From: a virus
Lineage: Duplodnaviria; Caudoviricetes
DNA length: 40,935 nt
IMG/VR virus record: IMGVR_UViG_3300013020_000006
Span: 1-40,935 of that record
Reading direction: 5' to 3' (one strand)
Made by a program: the position numbers and the translations under genes. The notes beneath the pieces were generated by a model. It worked only from the letters and a program-made list of their open reading frames with translations, did not search any database and had not been told where the DNA came from. Of this stretch, positions 10,208-40,935 are shown piece by piece (position 1 is the first letter of the stretch; each line of letters starts with the position of its first letter).

Positions 10208-10524
10208 CAACCTCTATATATAAGGCAAAATAGAATTAAGATTTTTCCGATTAAATTAGATATGCTCTATAATGCTCTATTTTACTCCAATATGCTCAGA
10301 CCCGAAAAACCCAGCTAGTTAAGATACTTAACCAGCTTTTTGCAACCTCTATATATAAGGCAAAATAGAATTAAGATTTTTCCGATTAAATAAGATTAAC
10401 TCTGTAATACTCTATAATGCTACCCAGTCTGACCTTGAGTCGAAAAATCAAGCTAGTTAAGATACTTAACCACCTCAACCTCTATATATAAGGCAAAATA
10501 GAATTAAGATTTTTCCGATTAAAT
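10208..10524. repeat. three identical 49-bp repeats at 135/133-bp period
   Basis: caacctctatatataaggcaaaatagaattaagatttttccgattaaat at 10208..10256, 10343..10391, 10476..10524; both inter-repeat segments carry agctagttaagatacttaacca. Confidence 0.95.
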
Positions 10525-10764
10525 CAAGTTAGCTCTCTTATGCTATATAATTTAATTAATTAACAAACGAGTGTTCTACTTTTACCTACTTAAGATGTTT
10601 AACACACAAAAGAAAGAAAAAAATAAAAAAGAAAGACTAGGCAAAGCCCTCGATTTTCAAAAGCTAAAAGAGAGAACTAAAAGCAGACCATTTTAGGTTA
10701 AAATTATGGAGTTTTAGAAAAAGTAAGGAAGGAGTTGAAAAATTGGGGAAATTCGGAAAAACAT

Positions 10765-10793
10765 TTGACTATGGAAAAACATTATTATATAAT
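10765..10793 (+). promoter_or_regulatory. sigma-A-type promoter for the structural operon
   Basis: TTGACT (10765-10770), 17 nt spacer, TATAAT (10788-10793). Confidence 0.8.
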
Positions 10794-10843
10794 ATAAGTG
10801 GAGAGTGGAAAGGGTCAAATATCCCCAGTAGATTTTTTTTAAT

Positions 10844-10938
10844 TAGGCAAGTGATATAGAACTGTAATAAGGTAAATAAGAGTTTTTGCCCGAGAGGGAT
10901 TTTCTCTTACGCATTTTAAGTTCTGTATCACTTGCCTA
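10844..10938 (+). promoter_or_regulatory. long RNA hairpin in the 5' leader
   Basis: 20-bp stem taggcaagtgatatagaact / agttctgtatcacttgccta (one U-G), inner taagag/ctctta, apical ccc-GAGA-ggg. Confidence 0.7.
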
Positions 10939-10975
10939 TTTCTATGTTTAGAAGTAGAAAGGAAGGAGGGAGAAT

Positions 10976-12944: not shown

Positions 12945-15900
12945 TTGCCTTATGATAAGAAACAGTTAATAGACAGAAAAAAGTTACACGACATTCATAC
13001 AGAGTACGCAGAGAATATCAATAAAGCAACCTTTGATAAAGTCCTAGACGACTCTGATGTAAAATCAAGGTATAACAGGCACTACTATCGTTCACTAAAT
13101 ATGGAAGACGAAGTAAAGCAGGTAGTCAATAAAACAAAGGAACAGCGACTACAACAAGAGTTATATCGACAAAATCAGAGAATGAAAGAACATGGACTAC
13201 AACCTTTTAGTAGAACTGAAATGGAGAAAGTAAAAAATGGTGCTATGAAAGAACTACAAGGTGAGTTCAAAGGTGCAACAATGGATAAGAGATTAGAGGT
13301 TTCTCGTAAGAAGATAAACCAAAGGTATAGGAAAGAGATACCCAGAGCAACTACTGAAAAAGGTCTGAAAAACGCTAAAAAAGACACATATAAATACATG
13401 ACTGACAGTAGAGAAACTGGGAGAAGTCTTAGGGGAGGGAGTTCTTTCAAGTATAATGAAAGACTTCTGATTTCAGAACAGGAAAGAGCAAACCAAGAGG
13501 CAACAAAGAAACTGGCAGAAATGAAAGACTTGTTGATGTCATGGAATTTAAACCCTAGTCATAAGATTTATGACATTTGTGATGAACACGCAACTACAGT
13601 AGGAGTCGAGGCACAAAGATATATAAGTAAATATGAAATACAAGATGTGGAAATGGAAGGGTTATATACATCAGCAGAAGTTCCAGAATATCCTCACCCA
13701 TATTGTCAATGTATGTTAGATATTGTATTGACCGATAACTATGGTATGAATACAGTAGCCATAGAGAATATTGAAAGTGGTCTAGGTCAGAACATGGCAG
13801 ACTACAATGACTATAACATGGTAAGTCCAGAAAGCCAGAAGTACATTCGTGAGTGGAGAGAAAGGAATTACCGATACAACAAGCCATGGGATTATACTAG
13901 ACGGTCAAAACAGGAGAAACTGAAAGCCTTAGAGAAAATAAGAGATGAAACTGATGTAGGAATGGAAGGAGTTCTAAACTTACATCAAGGAACTAAGAAG
14001 AGGGCTTTAGAGAAATACATTGAAGAAGGTGGAATAAGAGGATACCAAGAAGTATCGAAGAATATTTTAGGTTATTCATTAGACGCTGACATTATCGAAG
14101 ATATAGGAGTAGACCAAGCAATTAAAATAATGGCTTTAGATGTAAAGAAAAACCCGAACTTAGATATGGAAGATGTTGTTAGTGGTCTAAGTAAATATAT
14201 AGACGATAGAATGAGTATTGAAATGAAGAAGTCATTAGCAGAGGCTAAGAAACACATGGAAAGTGCTTATGAGAAAGTGAAAGCTGTAAAAGATGGCTCG
14301 GCTACAAGAAGAGCAGTAATGGGAATGAGAAGAAAAGCAGTACAACAGGCAAGAACTGAACTAGGTGACGCAGTTGGATATGCAGAGGCACACGAAAGAT
14401 TACTCAGAGAATTACGAGGTGCTATGGAAGACCCAGACAGCTTAAAATATGTAAACATACCACAGGCAAGAAGGGCAACAAATACTGTGGTAGATAAACT
14501 GGGCGTATCAGCAAAAAACTATACTGTAGATACCTTAGATGGAAGAAAGAACATTATAGTAGGGTATGATGGAATAGAAGAGATAACAGATAAGTGGTCT
14601 TCTAATAAAGGTCAGTTATCTATAACAGAGAAACTCAATAGAATAAGACAGGGAAAAGAAAATAAAGATGGTTGGCTACCTAACCACATGAAAAGTACCT
14701 ATACTAAGAATGGTAAGGAATATGACTTTAAATTAAGGGCAGACCAGCAGACAGGTATAAGATTTATAAGAGAAAACAAGACAGGGTTAATACATTACAA
14801 GCCCGGTGCTGGAAAAACGCATACTGCAATAGGCTCAATATCAGAGGCTTATGACGCAGGTGCTAACAAAGTTTTAGTTGTAGTTCCAGAGGACTTAGTA
14901 AGACAGTTCTCAAAAGAGATTGATGATTTTACTGATGACGCTATCACAGTTAGAGACTACAAGGCATACCTTAGCAAGAAAAAGAGGATAGAAATGTATG
15001 AGAATGACGACTCCTTCGTTCATGTAATAAGTCATAAAATGCTTAAGAATGATGGAGATTTAAAAGATATAGCTTACACAAAGGCAAACTCTTTAGCAGA
15101 CTTTGGTTGGGATATGACAGTAGTTGATGAGATACATCAAATCACAGGAAAGACAGCAAGGAACTTGAAAAAGCTGGATACTGAATATAAAGTAGGACTA
15201 ACAGGTACAGCAGTAAGAGATAGCGTAATGGATATGTACGATACACTCGATTGGTTACACCCAGATGGACTGCCCCCGAAATATAAGCTGGAGGGCAAAT
15301 TTAAAGATATAACTAAGGCATCAAGTTTATATGAAGAGTCAGTATTAAGAGACTTAAGAGATTTATTGAAACCTTTATCAATTACAAGAGATAGTCCAGT
15401 AGAGGCAAGAAAAATTCAAAGGACTATTCGTGCAGGTTTATCTGAGTGGCAGGAACAACAGCTAAAAATCATTGAGAAAGAGGCACAGGATAGAATAGAT
15501 AGAGGTAGAATGGCAGTAAGTAAAGTAAGAGCCATAGAGAAAGATAAACTCAATAAGGTCATAAATGCTGGTGGAGAAAAGAATGGTAAACTCAAGGTCT
15601 TAGATGATTTAATAGATAATAAGTATAAAGATGAAAAGAAACTGATTTTTAGTTCAGACCTAGATGGTGTAGAAACATTGAAAAACCATTTAGACGAAGA
15701 CAGGGCTTTAATCTATACAGCTAAAGATTTAACTGACTCAGAAAGAATGAAAGTTATACAGGAGTTTAAGACAAACCCCGATAAAGATGTGTTGGTCTTA
15801 TCAGACGCAGGGGCAACAGGATTGAACTTACAGGAGTCAGATGTAACGATACATTGGGATTTACCCGATAAATATTATAAGCTGGAACAGAGAGAGGCAA

Positions 15901-16091
15901 GAAACTGGCGTGGACTCAAAACAGGTGAGGTAAATGCAATTAAGTTAAAGACTCGTTCTTCTTATGATGATAGAATACTAAATGAGTTAAACAGGACTCA
16001 GAAAATAAGTGACGCACCCAAGAAGGCAGAGCAGATTGACGAACTAGGTGTTGCTCAGTATTTAAGAGATGTAACACAAGGGAGTGAATAA
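12945..16091 (+). CDS. MuF/SPP1-gp7-like minor head protein fused to a SNF2-family helicase/ATPase
   Basis: N-part: WNLNPSH..YDICD...PEYPHPYCQC; C-part: LRADQ, YKPGAGKT, VLVVVP, VVDEIH, GLTGT, SDAGATGLNLQ, LEQREARNWR; directly after portal. Confidence 0.85.
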   Translation: MPYDKKQLIDRKKLHDIHTEYAENINKATFDKVLDDSDVKSRYNRHYYRSLNMEDEVKQVVNKTKEQRLQQELYRQNQRMKEHGLQPFSRTEMEKVKNGAMKELQGEFKGATMDKRLEVSRKKINQRYRKEIPRATTEKGLKNAKKDTYKYMTDSRETGRSLRGGSSFKYNERLLISEQERANQEATKKLAEMKDLLMSWNLNPSHKIYDICDEHATTVGVEAQRYISKYEIQDVEMEGLYTSAEVPEYPHPYCQCMLDIVLTDNYGMNTVAIENIESGLGQNMADYNDYNMVSPESQKYIREWRERNYRYNKPWDYTRRSKQEKLKALEKIRDETDVGMEGVLNLHQGTKKRALEKYIEEGGIRGYQEVSKNILGYSLDADIIEDIGVDQAIKIMALDVKKNPNLDMEDVVSGLSKYIDDRMSIEMKKSLAEAKKHMESAYEKVKAVKDGSATRRAVMGMRRKAVQQARTELGDAVGYAEAHERLLRELRGAMEDPDSLKYVNIPQARRATNTVVDKLGVSAKNYTVDTLDGRKNIIVGYDGIEEITDKWSSNKGQLSITEKLNRIRQGKENKDGWLPNHMKSTYTKNGKEYDFKLRADQQTGIRFIRENKTGLIHYKPGAGKTHTAIGSISEAYDAGANKVLVVVPEDLVRQFSKEIDDFTDDAITVRDYKAYLSKKKRIEMYENDDSFVHVISHKMLKNDGDLKDIAYTKANSLADFGWDMTVVDEIHQITGKTARNLKKLDTEYKVGLTGTAVRDSVMDMYDTLDWLHPDGLPPKYKLEGKFKDITKASSLYEESVLRDLRDLLKPLSITRDSPVEARKIQRTIRAGLSEWQEQQLKIIEKEAQDRIDRGRMAVSKVRAIEKDKLNKVINAGGEKNGKLKVLDDLIDNKYKDEKKLIFSSDLDGVETLKNHLDEDRALIYTAKDLTDSERMKVIQEFKTNPDKDVLVLSDAGATGLNLQESDVTIHWDLPDKYYKLEQREARNWRGLKTGEVNAIKLKTRSSYDDRILNELNRTQKISDAPKKAEQIDELGVAQYLRDVTQGSE

Positions 16092-21078: not shown

Positions 21079-22530
21079 ATGCCAGAATATCTGAAACCAG
21101 ATGTATATGTGCAAAGAATGGCTAATTCTGCACCTCCAATTGAGGCTGTTGGTACAGCTACAGCAGGAATGATTGGTGTGTTCAGAAGGGGAACTCCCAA
21201 TGACCCTATGTTCATTACAGGTTGGGAAGATTTCAAAAGACAAACTGCATTAGGATTAGATACACCCTATATTGCAGATAGTGATACTGTGTATGCAGTA
21301 AGACAGTTCTTCAAGAATGGTGGGAATAGACTATTTATAGATAGAATTGTTGGTGATGGTGCAGTTAAAGCGTCAGTAGATATTGGTGATGTTAGTGCTG
21401 TAATGTTTGAGGCATTGTCAGTTGGAGAATGGGGTAATGAAGTAAGTGTAGAAGTTATCTCAAACGAAGACGAGATAACATTATTCGACATTATCATTAG
21501 AGTAGAAGGTGAGCAACAAGAAACCTTTAGAAAGCTGAGTGATACAGCAGAAGACGATAACTATTACATGACTGTTATTAATAGTGAAACTATTGGTAGC
21601 GACTTTGTAAGAGTTACTGATGATACAGGAACACTTACAGTAACGGCAGAGACTACTCTAACTAGTGGAGACTCAGACTTAACTACTCTTACAGATGTAG
21701 ACTATACAGAGGCACTACAAGACTTCAATAAAATTGATGATGTAAACATTTTAGCAGTACCAGGTCAGACAGCAAAGGCAGTACAGCAAGGTCTTTTAGA
21801 TTACTGTGAAAATCGTGGAGATGTGTTTGCAATTGTAGATAGTTCTAGTAACTTAGACCCTACAGGTGCTAAAGAGGAGAAAAATCAGTTGGCAAGTCCT
21901 TATGGTGCGTATTACTATCCATGGCTTAAGGTATTAGACCCACTATCAGCTAGTGGAGGAAAAAGATTAGTACCACCTAGTGGGTTCATAGCAGGAATTT
22001 ATGCTAGAACAGATGTAGATAGAGGAGTTCATAAAACACCTGCTGGACTAGAGGCTAGAGTTATGGGTGCAGTTGAAGTTGAAACTAAACTTGCCTCTGG
22101 GGATATTGAGTTACTCAACCCAGATAATGTAAACTGTATCGTACCGAAGAAAGGTCAAGGAATTGTCGTTTGGGGTGGTAGACTAATCTCAGAACACTTA
22201 GATAGAAAGTATGTGTCTGATATGAGATTTGACATCATGGTAGAAGAGTCTTGCTATGAGCAGACCCAATGGACAATCTTTGAGCCTAATACACCAGAGT
22301 TATGGGGTAGAATTAAATCAGCGTTACATGGTTTCCTATACGGATTATGGGAAGAAGGGGCTTTATTTGGTGAAACACCCGAAGAGGCTTATTATATTAA
22401 GTGTAATGAAGACTTAAACCCACAGGAAATTAGAGATGCTGGTAAGGTTATCGTTGAAGTAGGATACGCTAAAGTCAAACCTGCTGAGTTTACAATTCTA
22501 AGGTTTGCCCAAAAAACTAATGAACAATAA
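21079..22530 (+). CDS. contractile tail sheath protein
   Basis: MPEYLKPDVYV, AYYYPWL, VPPSGFIAGIYARTD..RGVHKTPAG, VWGGR, FEPN, VKPAEF. Confidence 0.95.
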   Translation: MPEYLKPDVYVQRMANSAPPIEAVGTATAGMIGVFRRGTPNDPMFITGWEDFKRQTALGLDTPYIADSDTVYAVRQFFKNGGNRLFIDRIVGDGAVKASVDIGDVSAVMFEALSVGEWGNEVSVEVISNEDEITLFDIIIRVEGEQQETFRKLSDTAEDDNYYMTVINSETIGSDFVRVTDDTGTLTVTAETTLTSGDSDLTTLTDVDYTEALQDFNKIDDVNILAVPGQTAKAVQQGLLDYCENRGDVFAIVDSSSNLDPTGAKEEKNQLASPYGAYYYPWLKVLDPLSASGGKRLVPPSGFIAGIYARTDVDRGVHKTPAGLEARVMGAVEVETKLASGDIELLNPDNVNCIVPKKGQGIVVWGGRLISEHLDRKYVSDMRFDIMVEESCYEQTQWTIFEPNTPELWGRIKSALHGFLYGLWEEGALFGETPEEAYYIKCNEDLNPQEIRDAGKVIVEVGYAKVKPAEFTILRFAQKTNEQ

Positions 22531-37680: not shown

Positions 37681-38694
37681 ATGAAGGCAGGAGATATAAT
37701 TCTCTTTAAGCCTAAAGGACTGCTAGGAAGATTAATTGCATGGGTGACTAAGTCTGAATATAGTCACTCAGCAGTAGTCTTTGGTAAAGAGTATGGGAAA
37801 GTACTACTGTTGGAAATTGACTGGACAAAAAGTAGAATAGTAACATTAGAGTCAATGACTAGAGAATATGATGTTTTCAGAGTCGATAAGTTAGAGGGAA
37901 GAGAAGAGGACTTCAAGAGAAATATAATAGAGTCTGGAAAGTATTTCAATGTAATGTATGACTACGAACAGTTATTTAGCTTTGTAAGGAGAATACTTTT
38001 TAGAGCAGAAGAAATAGCAAACAGTCCAGATAAGTATATCTGTTCAGAGTTAGTAGATAGAGCATATAAAGATATAGGAATAGACTTAGTGGGAGAGTAT
38101 GATACAGGAGAAGTTTCACCAGAAGACTTAGCAGACTCAAAACTGACAAAGAAGGTGGAGGTGACATGTATGAAGAGTGATTTTGAAAAAGCCTTCGATA
38201 AGGTAATAATGTTTGAAGGTGGGTATTCAGACAACCCTTATGATAGTGGTGGAAAAACGAAATACGGAATAACAGAGCAAACAGCAAGAAGTTTTGGTTA
38301 TAAAGGAGATATGAGAGACTTAACATTAGAGAAGGCAAAAGAGATTTATAAGGCAGGATACTGGGATAGAGTAAAGGCAAGTGAGTTTGATAACTTCTAT
38401 ATTAAGGAAGTATTATTCGATACAGCAGTAAATATGGGAACAGGAACAGCAGTAAAACTATTGCAGAAGGCACTAAACCTTTTAGAACAAAACGAAATAG
38501 TGGAAGATGGAATAGTAGGAAGTCAAACAATCAACAGAGTAAACGAGTATGCTTATCAGAAAGACCTAGTATTTTGGTTTTTAGTAAAAAGGCTAAAGAG
38601 GTATGATAAAATCGTAGAGAGAAATGAGTCTCAGAAAGTGTTTATTAGAGGTTGGGGAAGAAGAGTACAGAGGTTGTTGGAGGAGGTACTTTAA
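37681..38694 (+). CDS. permuted papain-like (YiiX/YaeF) amidase fused to GH108 endolysin with PG-binding tail
   Basis: GDIILF, YSHSAV, YDY, ICSELV; then FEGGYSDNPYDSGGKTKYGIT, FDTAVNMG, DGIVG..T, FIRGW.RR. Confidence 0.88.
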   Translation: MKAGDIILFKPKGLLGRLIAWVTKSEYSHSAVVFGKEYGKVLLLEIDWTKSRIVTLESMTREYDVFRVDKLEGREEDFKRNIIESGKYFNVMYDYEQLFSFVRRILFRAEEIANSPDKYICSELVDRAYKDIGIDLVGEYDTGEVSPEDLADSKLTKKVEVTCMKSDFEKAFDKVIMFEGGYSDNPYDSGGKTKYGITEQTARSFGYKGDMRDLTLEKAKEIYKAGYWDRVKASEFDNFYIKEVLFDTAVNMGTGTAVKLLQKALNLLEQNEIVEDGIVGSQTINRVNEYAYQKDLVFWFLVKRLKRYDKIVERNESQKVFIRGWGRRVQRLLEEVL

Positions 38695-38888
38695 TGAGAA
38701 ACCCCTATGAGAAAGATAAGATTAGAGACAGGTTAAAGAGAACAGCCCCAGAACATTTAGAGGGTTATGACAATGGTTGGCTAGATATAGAACATCATGA
38801 TTGGGGTGTTCAGATTTTCTCCAGCACAAGCGAGGGAAGAAGAATAGTCGATACGATTATTAAGACTCCCTCATTGGAGGGTTGGTAA
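38694..38888 (+). CDS. small hypothetical protein (start reassigned to ATG 38694)
   Basis: ggaggagg RBS; ATG overlaps upstream TAA. Confidence 0.6.
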   Translation: MRNPYEKDKIRDRLKRTAPEHLEGYDNGWLDIEHHDWGVQIFSSTSEGRRIVDTIIKTPSLEGW

Positions 38889-39140
38889 ATGATAGAGAAT
38901 AAGAGAAGTAGGTACAGATATTTCAGTATAGTAGAGAATACAATGTTAGGGTTTATAATCAATCTGATTTTGACAGGACTAGGAGTTTTTATGCTACCAA
39001 GACTGTTACTTTTATCGGGAATTGGTGGAGTAAAAGAAATAAGAGATTTAGAGAATGGATATAATTGCAATCCAACAGAAGTAGAATACATGGCTATAAT
39101 AATTGGAGGATTGGCTTTAGAGATACTAACTATAGTTTAG
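38889..39140 (+). CDS. small membrane protein
   Basis: hydrophobic segments; ggaggg RBS. Confidence 0.55.
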   Translation: MIENKRSRYRYFSIVENTMLGFIINLILTGLGVFMLPRLLLLSGIGGVKEIRDLENGYNCNPTEVEYMAIIIGGLALEILTIV

Positions 39141-39229
39141 AGATATAAATATACTATATGATATGACTTAGATAAAAAATTAAAGAGTGAATACGGAGGT
39201 GGTAGAATAATTAAATAGGAGTGGTTTAA

Positions 39230-39631
39230 TTGGAGAAGGTAGTGTTAGAGGCTATCAAGACAGGAACAACTGGTAGTATAGGACTAGTTATTTCCTATAT
39301 ATTATATAAGGTTATAACTAAAGTTTGGAAAGATAGCCTAAAACGAGAACAGCAGTTGAAGGAAGATGCTAGGAAAAGAGAAGAAGAAATAATCTGTAGA
39401 GCAGAAAAAAGGGAAGAGAAAATGTTTGAGAGAGACGAGAAATTGACAGGACATATAGAAAAACTGCAAGAGTCTTTTAGACAACAGATGGAATTTATCA
39501 AAGATATGAATATAACCTTTAGACACACTTTAGATGGAGTACAAGAAGATATAGACGATTTATCAGGGAGAGTTGACGAGACTAATCAGAGTGTTAGAGA
39601 GATTATGAGGAAGATTGATAAAGACAACTAA
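39230..39631 (+). CDS. holin-like protein (one TM plus coiled coil, BhlA/UviB-like)
   Basis: N-terminal hydrophobic helix, KREE repeats, lysis cassette position. Confidence 0.65.
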   Translation: MEKVVLEAIKTGTTGSIGLVISYILYKVITKVWKDSLKREQQLKEDARKREEEIICRAEKREEKMFERDEKLTGHIEKLQESFRQQMEFIKDMNITFRHTLDGVQEDIDDLSGRVDETNQSVREIMRKIDKDN

Positions 39632-39645
39632 GGAGGTTGTTAATT

Positions 39646-39930
39646 ATGTTAGGTACAATTAAGACAATTTTTGGTGTAGTGCAGAAGATTATTGCTGTAT
39701 TCACAGTTGCAGTTTCCATTACAGAGGCAGAGTTGGAAGATGGTAAAAGTTCTGACAAAGAGAAAAAGGCTCTAGGGATTGTTGAAAAAGGAATTAATGA
39801 ATTGGTGGACAAAGACAAAGTTCCAGAGTGGGTAGCAGACATCTTCTTAACAGAGTTCTTGAGTAAATATTTAGTTACAGTTTTAGTTAAGGTGGCTCAC
39901 AGTATAGATTTTTTTACCAAGAAGGAGTAA
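39646..39930 (+). CDS. second holin-like protein
   Basis: aggaggt RBS, amphipathic N-terminus, AE..DGK...KEKKAL motif. Confidence 0.55.
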   Translation: MLGTIKTIFGVVQKIIAVFTVAVSITEAELEDGKSSDKEKKALGIVEKGINELVDKDKVPEWVADIFLTEFLSKYLVTVLVKVAHSIDFFTKKE

Positions 39931-40217
39931 AGTTTAAACTAGGTGGGTACACAGTTGAATTAGATTATTTTAAGTACAAGGAAATACTTGAGTTAGTCAC
40001 AGTTTCAATTGGTGGAGAAAAACTCACAGAGGAAGAGATAAATAGACGAGTTGAAGAAGGAATGAAAAAGTTAGTTGAAAGTGTGGACAAACAGACAGAT
40101 GAAGATATAGATAAAATTACAGACGATTTACAGGGAGATATAAGAGAACAGCAGGGATTGGAAAGAGAAATAGATTTCGATAAGAAGATTAATGAGGCTC
40201 TATCAGATATTAAATGA
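39909..40217 (+). CDS. candidate -1 frameshift extension of the holin-like gene
   Basis: T TTT TTT at 39909-39915; -1 frame open 100 codons YQEGVKFKLGGYTVELDYFK...ALSDIK*. Confidence 0.6.
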   Translation, partial: FFYQEGVKFKLGGYTVELDYFKYKEILELVTVSIGGEKLTEEEINRRVEEGMKKLVESVDKQTDEDIDKITDDLQGDIREQQGLEREIDFDKKINEALSDIK

Positions 40218-40325
40218 TAGAGTCTTTTCTTTTTTCAGAAAAATAAAAATCAATAAAAATTAAAGCATACTTAAGTATTATCTAAGTACAAAGTGCTAAT
40301 CTGCCCCTACACCCTTACAGCCCCT

Positions 40326-40354
40326 TTTACAATTTTACCAGTGTATTATATAAT
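40326..40354 (+). promoter_or_regulatory. sigma-A-type promoter
   Basis: TTTACA (40326-40331), 17 nt spacer, TATAAT (40349-40354). Confidence 0.75.
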
Positions 40355-40360
40355 AAACTT

Positions 40361-40870
40361 AACATAAACAAATACCTAATAAAACTTTTTACAAAGGTAA
40401 CGACACGATTTTCTCAGACTCCTAAAAGGTGCAGATAAGTTGAAATGCAGGACTGCTCTTTAAATACTGTCAGATTTAAGAGTTGTTTGGTAGTAGGAAA
40501 GACATCTACTACTTAGCCGATTAAGGTTAGCAGGTCAATAAGAGATATACTTATTGATAAGAGAAAGAGGTAAAACGATATTAACGATAACAAGTTGATA
40601 GTGGGTAGGAGGTAGTGCTTTTATCCTTAGCGTCTCAACTGGTGGTTGTAAGTGTCAAAGCCAACATAGAAAGACCTAGTGAACGATAAGCTGTGTGGGC
40701 ATAGTCCTTCCCAGATGGTAAAGGTGTAGTTTGCTAGGTCTAACTAGGACTCATTATCTAGTGTCATGGAAGTTAGGTAAGAACTAGCTTTTTTGAGAGT
40801 AGATAAAATAAGGGTAAGTTACAGCTAAATTTAAGTTAAGTAACAGGGAGGTTATAAAGACCTCTCTTTT
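40361..40870 (+). ncRNA. candidate large structured non-coding RNA (~510 nt), family unknown
   Basis: No tracked ORF; bounded by promoter and terminator; about nine consecutive stems, many with G-U pairs. Confidence 0.6.
40845..40870 (+). terminator. intrinsic terminator
   Basis: agggaggt-tataaag-acctctct then ttt. Confidence 0.7.
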
Positions 40871-40900
40871 ACTGTCTAAAGAAATTAGGAGGGTTAAAAG

Positions 40901-40935
40901 TTGAAGAAAATTTATATGGCAAAGGTCAATGTGGA
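40901..40935 (+). CDS. 5' start of a gene truncated by the window edge
   Basis: aggaggg RBS, TTG start, MKKIYMAKVNV. Confidence 0.55.
   Translation, partial: MKKIYMAKVNV

Follow-up and report, generated by a model that had tools for sequence, protein, structure and literature searches.

A predicted ~510-nt structured non-coding RNA between the lysis and replication genes of a phage, apparently outside the catalogued families of large RNAs

Introduction

What is carried by half a kilobase of phage DNA that holds no gene, appears to be framed by a promoter and a terminator, and lies directly in front of a DNA polymerase gene? The question is raised by 40,935 bases of a virus record (the window, meaning here the whole stretch of DNA that was analysed; record completeness 43%), near the end of which a first-pass annotation had proposed a large, ornate non-coding RNA. 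Known classes of large bacterial or phage RNA are few, and ROOL and GOLLD are still poorly understood. According to the literature, ROOL RNAs have an average length of 581 nt (PMC5737381), ROOL and GOLLD assemble via kissing loops (PMC12286853), GOLLD has a conserved 3′ part and a variable 5′ part (PMC12286853, PMC12990946), and RNA-only multimeric scaffolds have been shown for both (PMC12286853, PMC12412911, PMC12990946). PMC10383478 describes highly expressed long non-coding RNAs of unknown function in the Kayvirus phages K and vB_SauM-515A1.

Results

The locus lies at the boundary of the lysis and replication modules

The window carries a myophage gene set (terminase, portal, N4-gp56-type capsid protein, tail sheath and endolysin), and its capsid protein is 43–45% identical to those of Bacillus phage BCD7 and Streptomyces phage BRock. 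On the plus strand, the region ahead of the locus holds an endolysin with peptidase C92, glycosyl hydrolase 108 and peptidoglycan-binding domains (37681–38694), two small membrane-type ORFs without firm family match that are likely holin-like by position and hydrophobic N-termini (39230–39930), and an intrinsic terminator that closes the late/lysis operon (40195–40236; 11-bp stem, −14.0 kcal/mol, U run). The gene starting at 40901, whose identity the first-pass annotation had left as a question, could be read from a sister contig, L002, which is 99.85% identical to the window over 11.3 kb and extends past its end: it encodes a 677-aa family A DNA polymerase (Pfam PF00476, PF01612), of which the window retains the ribosome-binding site and TTG start (40886–40935). 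Because L002 shows this polymerase and further replication genes next, the intervening stretch sits where the lysis module meets the replication module. The promoter type, ribosome sites, 35% GC and run labels together point to a low-GC Gram-positive (Bacillota), salt-tolerant anaerobe as host, the habitat labels of the examined runs being shale gas, oil field and groundwater for DNA and salt lake for RNA; a search by the PhoH protein for a genome of the host group gave 0 of 301.

Several other features of the window were recorded in passing. The last lysis-region gene is separated from the terminator by a 94-codon open frame (39933–40217) whose C-terminal half is acidic; the first common start codon of this frame comes only at 40062, and it has no family match. 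The portal and head genes are separated by a gene for a 1048-aa SNF2-type helicase (12945–16091). Three iteron-like 76-nt direct repeats (10208–10551; 89% alike, spacing 135 and 133) lie inside a 1.3-kb gene-free stretch of the phoH to portal region, and may serve as a replication origin or as a packaging site.

A one-strand structured stretch between a promoter and a terminator

The promoter claimed for the RNA, TTTACA-17-TATAAT, is present at 40326–40354 on the plus strand; it is of sigma-70/sigma-A type, matches 11 of 12 consensus positions and has a predicted start near 40361, while a promoter scan taken by itself was not above chance (4 sites against 8.1 in shuffles). The proposed terminator was likewise found (40845–40870, plus strand), with a nine-pair stem at 40845–40867 and a short U run that makes it likely to be leaky. 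Between them lies a predicted non-coding RNA of ~510 nt (40361–40870, plus strand), to which folding, RNA-run contigs and the lack of ORFs all point. The TATTATATAATA −10 region recurs at 10783 of the window and twice in a related phage, G001, once at the equivalent post-lysis position; in the window, it belongs to a second promoter that is followed by ~170 nt with short hairpins and then by the next ribosome site (10766–10960 in all).

The stretch is gene-free, as had been claimed: its longest ORFs are 23 and 24 aa on the plus strand and 26 aa on the minus strand, where there is also an open 49-aa frame, and no ORF longer than 26 aa lies wholly inside it. When 40360–40880 was folded against shuffled sequences, a comparison that the first-pass annotation had called for, the plus strand gave −144.6 kcal/mol and z −4.49, with 0/100 shuffles as good, compared with z −0.46 and 30/100 for the reverse complement. 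The asymmetry persisted after removal of the terminator (z −4.4 on the plus strand vs −0.6 on the minus strand; 40 shuffles). G-U pairs make up 30 of 156 pairs on the plus strand and 10 of 128 on the minus strand; the first-pass annotation had taken their frequency as a sign of plus-strand selection at the RNA level. Only the plus strand folds beyond chance.

Could this be the leader of the replication operon and nothing more? The polymerase start lies 30 nt downstream of the 40870 terminator, and the best candidate for a second promoter of that gene did not rise above 9/12, so the RNA must double as polymerase leader at least part-time; the layout forces some such role. On this account the stretch would be a long structured 5′ leader of an early replication operon, acting as an attenuator or processing element that sets DNA polymerase output, and the released piece would merely be stable. 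Two relatives, G001 and G004, likewise carry a promoter and a structured, gene-free stretch that follows the lysis genes and runs into early genes, which fits a leader. However, the terminator stem has a probability of 0.84–1.0 in the full transcript, and no antiterminator competing with it was found in the full-transcript fold; the pairing of 40406–25 with the polymerase start is at chance (108/200 shuffles as good; rank 49 of 59 gene starts); and the stretch contains neither a T-box motif, by pattern search, nor an Rfam leader or riboswitch. Conservation also peaks in an internal core, described below, and there is free variation in the part that adjoins the terminator and the ribosome site. 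We regard a leader, the strongest of the rival accounts, as rather unlikely. Of the earlier claim that the RNA has its own promoter and terminator, the bounding by both stands, but a stand-alone gene is not fully separable from a leader of the polymerase operon.

RNA contigs from salt lakes are confined to the stretch

A run search with 39600–40935 matched 20 runs, five of them recorded as RNA; with this query the search was not selective for the RNA part alone. Four of the five RNA runs (two studies) were compared with 38500–40935, which includes the polymerase gene for no more than its first 35 nt, and 4 of 15 DNA runs were examined for variants; the small-share runs X10, X11, X13, X16, X18 and X19 were left aside in these comparisons. 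All four examined salt-lake metatranscriptome runs contained contigs of 176–320 nt on 40373–40708, 98–99% alike with 2–5 differences and at depths of 3.1–88.7. Their starts (40373, 40385, 40402 and 40419) all lie a little downstream of the predicted start, 40361, and the upstream coding DNA (38500–40370, 1.85 kb) yielded only five partial matches of 18–38 nt, from otherwise unlike contigs. No contigs fell on 40724–40870, a gap that is uninformative, as short contigs may be filtered.

Two of the runs also contained a diverged RNA, 321 and 328 nt long and at depths of 7.2 and 64.9, which fits the window only at 40663/66–40711/23, its first 250 nt being unlike the window; in one run it was deeper than the window-like contig (64.9 vs 5.1). 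RNA data thus contain two or more diverged members of the family. Strand, ends and RNA level are not readable from such contigs, and DNA carry-over into RNA libraries is possible. The stretch would give rise to a long, gene-free, one-strand structured transcript, abundant as judged from contig presence against flanks, as large ornate phage RNAs are. The folding statistics and the confinement of RNA-run contigs to the stretch together support the earlier claim of a discrete, plus-strand, structured non-coding RNA.

The same data bear on two further accounts, namely that the stretch is a catalytic or mobile RNA (an intron remnant or ribozyme), or that it is no RNA gene at all, being a replication origin or DNA carried over into the RNA libraries. 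It does precede replication genes, and it contains TAGTC at 40702, which we take to resemble one strand of the group I intron P7 helix. Against carry-over, the flanking DNA is uncovered in the RNA runs; against an origin, the folding is one-sided, unlike that of DNA inverted repeats, and the iteron-like array lies elsewhere, at 10208–10551. By pattern search, no GACTA partner and no hammerhead, RNase P, group II or tRNA motif was found in the stretch; no model for tmRNA or introns matched, there is no interrupted gene, and Rfam has no match. We consider these accounts highly improbable.

No match to catalogued families of large RNAs

Rfam gave no match, either at the gathering cut-off or at E ≤ 10, the latter in a scan of 1 kb. 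The first-pass annotation had been unable to assign the RNA to a family, and that holds, with a control (L. salivarius ROOL) recovered as expected: the ROOL model (RF03087, cut-off 99.1 bits) scored this control at 130.4 bits and found 0 matches at E ≤ 1 in L002. Nor is there similarity to the L. salivarius ROOL sequence itself (129/200 shuffles as good), to which a model of the window's core gives at most 6 bits. The long end-to-end helix typical of ROOL has no counterpart in the predicted fold beyond 5 bp with a probability of 0.45. ROOL motifs (GGUGAAAGUUGG, AAGUAGCC, CAAUAGAC and others) occur with 1–3 mismatches and out of order in the window, but even a true ROOL shows 0–2 mismatches. 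The GOLLD 3′-domain model (RF02032) had no match at E ≤ 10 in the 1 kb, nor at E ≤ 1 in L002, its controls having scored only below the cut-off or not at all (0/150 genomes). We found 0 tRNA genes in the window and 0 in L002, which cover the genome only in part; ROOL and GOLLD commonly, though not always, lie beside tRNA genes.

The RNA might be a very diverged ROOL or GOLLD that escapes the Rfam models. ROOL resembles the predicted RNA in being ~0.5–0.6 kb long, phage-borne, abundant, found in Bacillota and built of multiway junctions and loop-loop pairings (PMC5737381, PMC12286853), and its 16 helices, five multiway junctions and three pseudoknots may be set beside the ~15 helices, two multiway junctions and two loop-loop candidates (not covariation-grade) of our prediction. 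The RNA differs from ROOL in having no model match, no end-to-end helix and no tRNA neighbours, and in lying between lysis and replication genes. GOLLD is likewise phage-borne, with a conserved 3′ and a variable 5′ domain (PMC12286853, PMC12990946), a division suggested here by the pattern of variants; unlike GOLLD, the window RNA has a predicted length of 510 nt, compared with 700–830 nt for solved examples, has a core of ~170 rather than 375–416 nt, and is not accompanied by a tRNA array. Given a ROOL control at 130 bits (no GOLLD control rose above the cut-off), the lack of a model match, of similarity and of an end-to-end helix makes a diverged member of either family improbable.

Two other systems invite comparison. 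OLE RNA is also large (~600 nt), structured and found in extremophilic Bacillota, but it is chromosomal and protein-partnered, and the window RNA has no Rfam match. The Kayvirus RNAs (PMC10383478) are long non-coding RNAs of Bacillota myophages as well; they adjoin tRNA genes, however, and the window RNA has no sequence match among 50,697 phage records. No description of this RNA was found in the literature, and six supplementary files of PMC10690425 gave no match. By model match, the RNA is apparently uncatalogued and separate from ROOL and GOLLD.

Natural variants point to a conserved 3′ core

All of the stems and motifs listed in the first-pass annotation were located in the sequence, each at its proposed position. 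A predicted multi-hairpin 5′ domain (40409–40567, plus strand) is closed by UUUUCUC/GAGAAAG, with helix probabilities of 0.5–0.99, and would comprise hairpins at 40430–49, 40450–88, 40489–513, 40514–29 and 40534–58; the salt-lake changes G40480A, T40487C and G40489A retain its pairing. The remaining evidence comes largely from a DNA run, X9, which contributes a 397-nt contig (93% identical, depth 7) with 28 differences, 21 of them listed. These variants favour a hairpin UAUUAAC/GUUGAUA (40579–40600) over the long arm agttga/tcaact that had been proposed there: X9 has three one-sided, pair-keeping changes in this hairpin, whose ensemble probability in the window's own sequence is 0.01. It is followed by a predicted hairpin GGGUAGGAG/CUUUUAUCC (40603–40626), in which G40608A (X9) retains a pair and from which the sister contig L002 lacks 7 nt. 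Both agttga/tcaact and a second proposed stem, gttac/gtaac, are indeed in the sequence, but X9 disrupts 3 of 6 and 1 of 5 of their pairs, respectively, and because this natural variant breaks both, they probably lie outside the conserved fold.

The 3′ core is near-invariant. X9 has one listed change in 40646–40818 (173 nt), compared with 20 in the surrounding 158 nt, a contrast with p 3e-6 for limits chosen from the data and p 0.045 for limits defined by structure (6/166 vs 15/165). Folded alone, 40633–40798 on the plus strand is predicted to form a five-way junction (−48.4 kcal/mol) closed by UCUCAA/UUGAGA, and X9 gains two pairs in this closing helix (40633–42/40789–98). The core would contain a hairpin (40642–40667) with the loop GUGUC (40652–56), the complement of GACAC at 40402–06; a 13-bp arm (40672–40741) topped by a hairpin with the loop CAUAGUCCUU, in a region where 40663–40723 is common to the diverged RNA; and AGGACU (40746–40751), the predicted loop-loop partner, as pseudoknot or kissing pair, of AGUCCU at 40703–08 and the only candidate to pass our filter. 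Both of these long-range pairings had been suggested beforehand. Among 15 single-stranded segments they are the two best loop-loop complements, AGUCCU/AGGACU being the best, and two pairs as good arose in ~1.6% of 2000 shuffles (p about 0.02–0.05), a figure that is optimistic because the loop limits were chosen by the analyst.

Read by hand, the 30-letter loose ends of the diverged RNA give a full 7-bp stem at 40642–48/40661–67, its last two partner letters being assumed; this stem shows one two-sided change, two gained pairs and different loop letters. The collection of homologues for covariation that had been called for thus produced this one two-sided change and no full-length diverged homologue, for which reason covariation is only glimpsed, mostly as one-sided changes in near-identical variants.

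A revised fold accommodates all four salt-lake changes (40480, 40487, 40489 and 40583), as well as the X9 changes at 40583, 40597, 40598, 40608, 40639, 40640, 40642 and 40859, each of which keeps or adds pairs; the last of these, G40859A, retains a pair in the terminator stem. The revision has its price: for the full RNA it gives −124.0 kcal/mol vs −137.2 for the minimum-energy fold, a cost of 13, and the helices favoured by X9 have an ensemble probability of 0.00–0.01 in the window's own sequence. In addition, the X9 changes at 40644–45 fit a second partner equally well (40643–49 with 40368–74). The revised fold, with its five-way 3′ core and loop-loop pairings, is therefore offered as a model that leans largely on one contig, X9.

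A conserved loop could also serve another purpose, and the RNA might be a trans-acting base-pairing molecule or protein decoy (an antisense to ribosome-binding sites, an antitoxin or a sponge) instead of a scaffold. In an uncontrolled comparison, the top-scoring duplexes for several phage start regions involved the conserved loop region with UCCUUCCC, and the abundance is compatible with a decoy. Nevertheless, no specific target stood out, the UCCUUCCC motif is partly buried in a stem, and 510 nt with a multi-helix core exceeds, from general knowledge, what such RNAs need. This makes a trans-acting role very improbable.

Related phages carry analogous stretches in the same place

Searches for homologues returned little beyond the locus itself. 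With blastn, 50,697 phage records gave four short matches at chance level and plasmids none. Pattern scans of viral contigs found one locus, the sister contig; 120 loci in 15 of 64 parts, of which nhmmer showed none to be homologous; and, in further scans, 23 loci (one the sister, 22 unrelated) and 10 loci (one the sister). Genome contigs had 0 loci and metagenome contigs three (the record itself, the sister and one unrelated). Neither nhmmer nor blastn found a match in 183 loci from phages related by polymerase or capsid, and one chance match came from 121 relatives of a genome with capsid fragments, which is probably a small-genome organism and thus off target. A covariance model of the core, R1, which is weak because it was built from two identical sequences, matched 0/49 related records and 0/150 Bacillota genomes.

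Among the related phages, G001 has a polymerase 50% identical, and G004 a capsid protein 52% identical, to that of the window. Downstream of its endolysin, G001 (L165:3097–3640) has a terminator, a promoter and ~410 nt of gene-free, structured non-coding DNA (L165:3223–3632; z −4.0). G004 (C1, about 48860–49190, minus strand; L394) has a promoter, a gene-free multi-hairpin stretch of ~330 nt (z −4.5) and a terminator after its endolysin and holin, without a phage match. The last hairpin of each has UUAUA in its loop, and in G001 it is not followed by a U run. A structured post-lysis stretch was seen in 2 of the 10 relatives inspected; it is absent from BCD7 and G003, and the post-lysis point is unconfirmed in several others. 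Neither stretch has an Rfam match or a match to the core model, and similarity to the window RNA is at chance (G001, 45/200 shuffles as good; G004, 128/200). We therefore treat them as analogues in the same place. A shared order AACGA-GAUAA-UACUG, noticed by eye in the window, G001 and G004, was reached by 17/300 shuffles in the first 130 nt, is at chance over 330 nt and was set aside. A hammerhead-like fold of the G001 stretch, also suggested by eye, was discarded, as the stems do not fit.

The relatives held other non-coding features. In G002 (C10), ~620 nt of a 1-kb gene-free stretch (L391:15231–15852) fold into long rod-like helices (z −6.7; reverse −3.0) with no Rfam match, and the DNA polymerase gene (L390), as judged by eye, is apparently interrupted by a 207-aa ORF together with sequence whose motifs resemble those of group I introns. 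G004:C1 has a gene-free stretch with very long hairpins (21125–21490; z −8.6) upstream of its replication genes. In G003 (C169; L381, about 14650–16050), a 353-aa reverse transcriptase-like ORF adjoins a tail gene and follows an AAT-rich non-coding stretch, a locus that by eye looks like a diversity-generating retroelement.

Discussion

Because the stretch is gene-free, folds strongly, appears in RNA data without its neighbours and belongs to no catalogued family, it likely specifies a new abundant phage RNA. The explanation that we favour, with about even confidence, is a stand-alone gene for a ~510-nt non-coding RNA that is stable, accumulates and acts via its fold, most likely as an RNA-only scaffold of the ROOL/GOLLD type. 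The housekeeping RNA polymerase of the host is predicted to transcribe it from the 40326 promoter to the 40870 terminator, with exact ends that we infer, and the ~510-nt product would accumulate as a stable molecule. By analogy with known scaffolds, its exposed complementary loops may pair within and between copies to give a compact, probably multimeric, assembly, which the conserved five-way 3′ core and the two loop-loop pairings of our model would shape. Occasional read-through of the weak, short-U terminator would presumably supply the DNA polymerase message.

A broader proposal, which we put forward tentatively and at somewhat less than even confidence, is that this is a new family of abundant, self-assembling RNAs in phages of the saline subsurface and salt lakes, with a five-way 3′ core locked by loop-loop pairs. 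The point at which lysis genes give way to replication genes, and not a tRNA cluster, would then be a slot that can take different large RNAs interchangeably, related phages having other structured RNAs there that do not align with this one.

Homologues of the window RNA are few, and it would make a compact target for cryo-EM. As it precedes a DNA polymerase gene and has no tRNA neighbours, its function can be approached from another side. As a smaller, unrelated family seen in environmental RNA, it may allow one to test independently whether large phage RNAs form cages or multimers in general, a question posed in PMC12286853.
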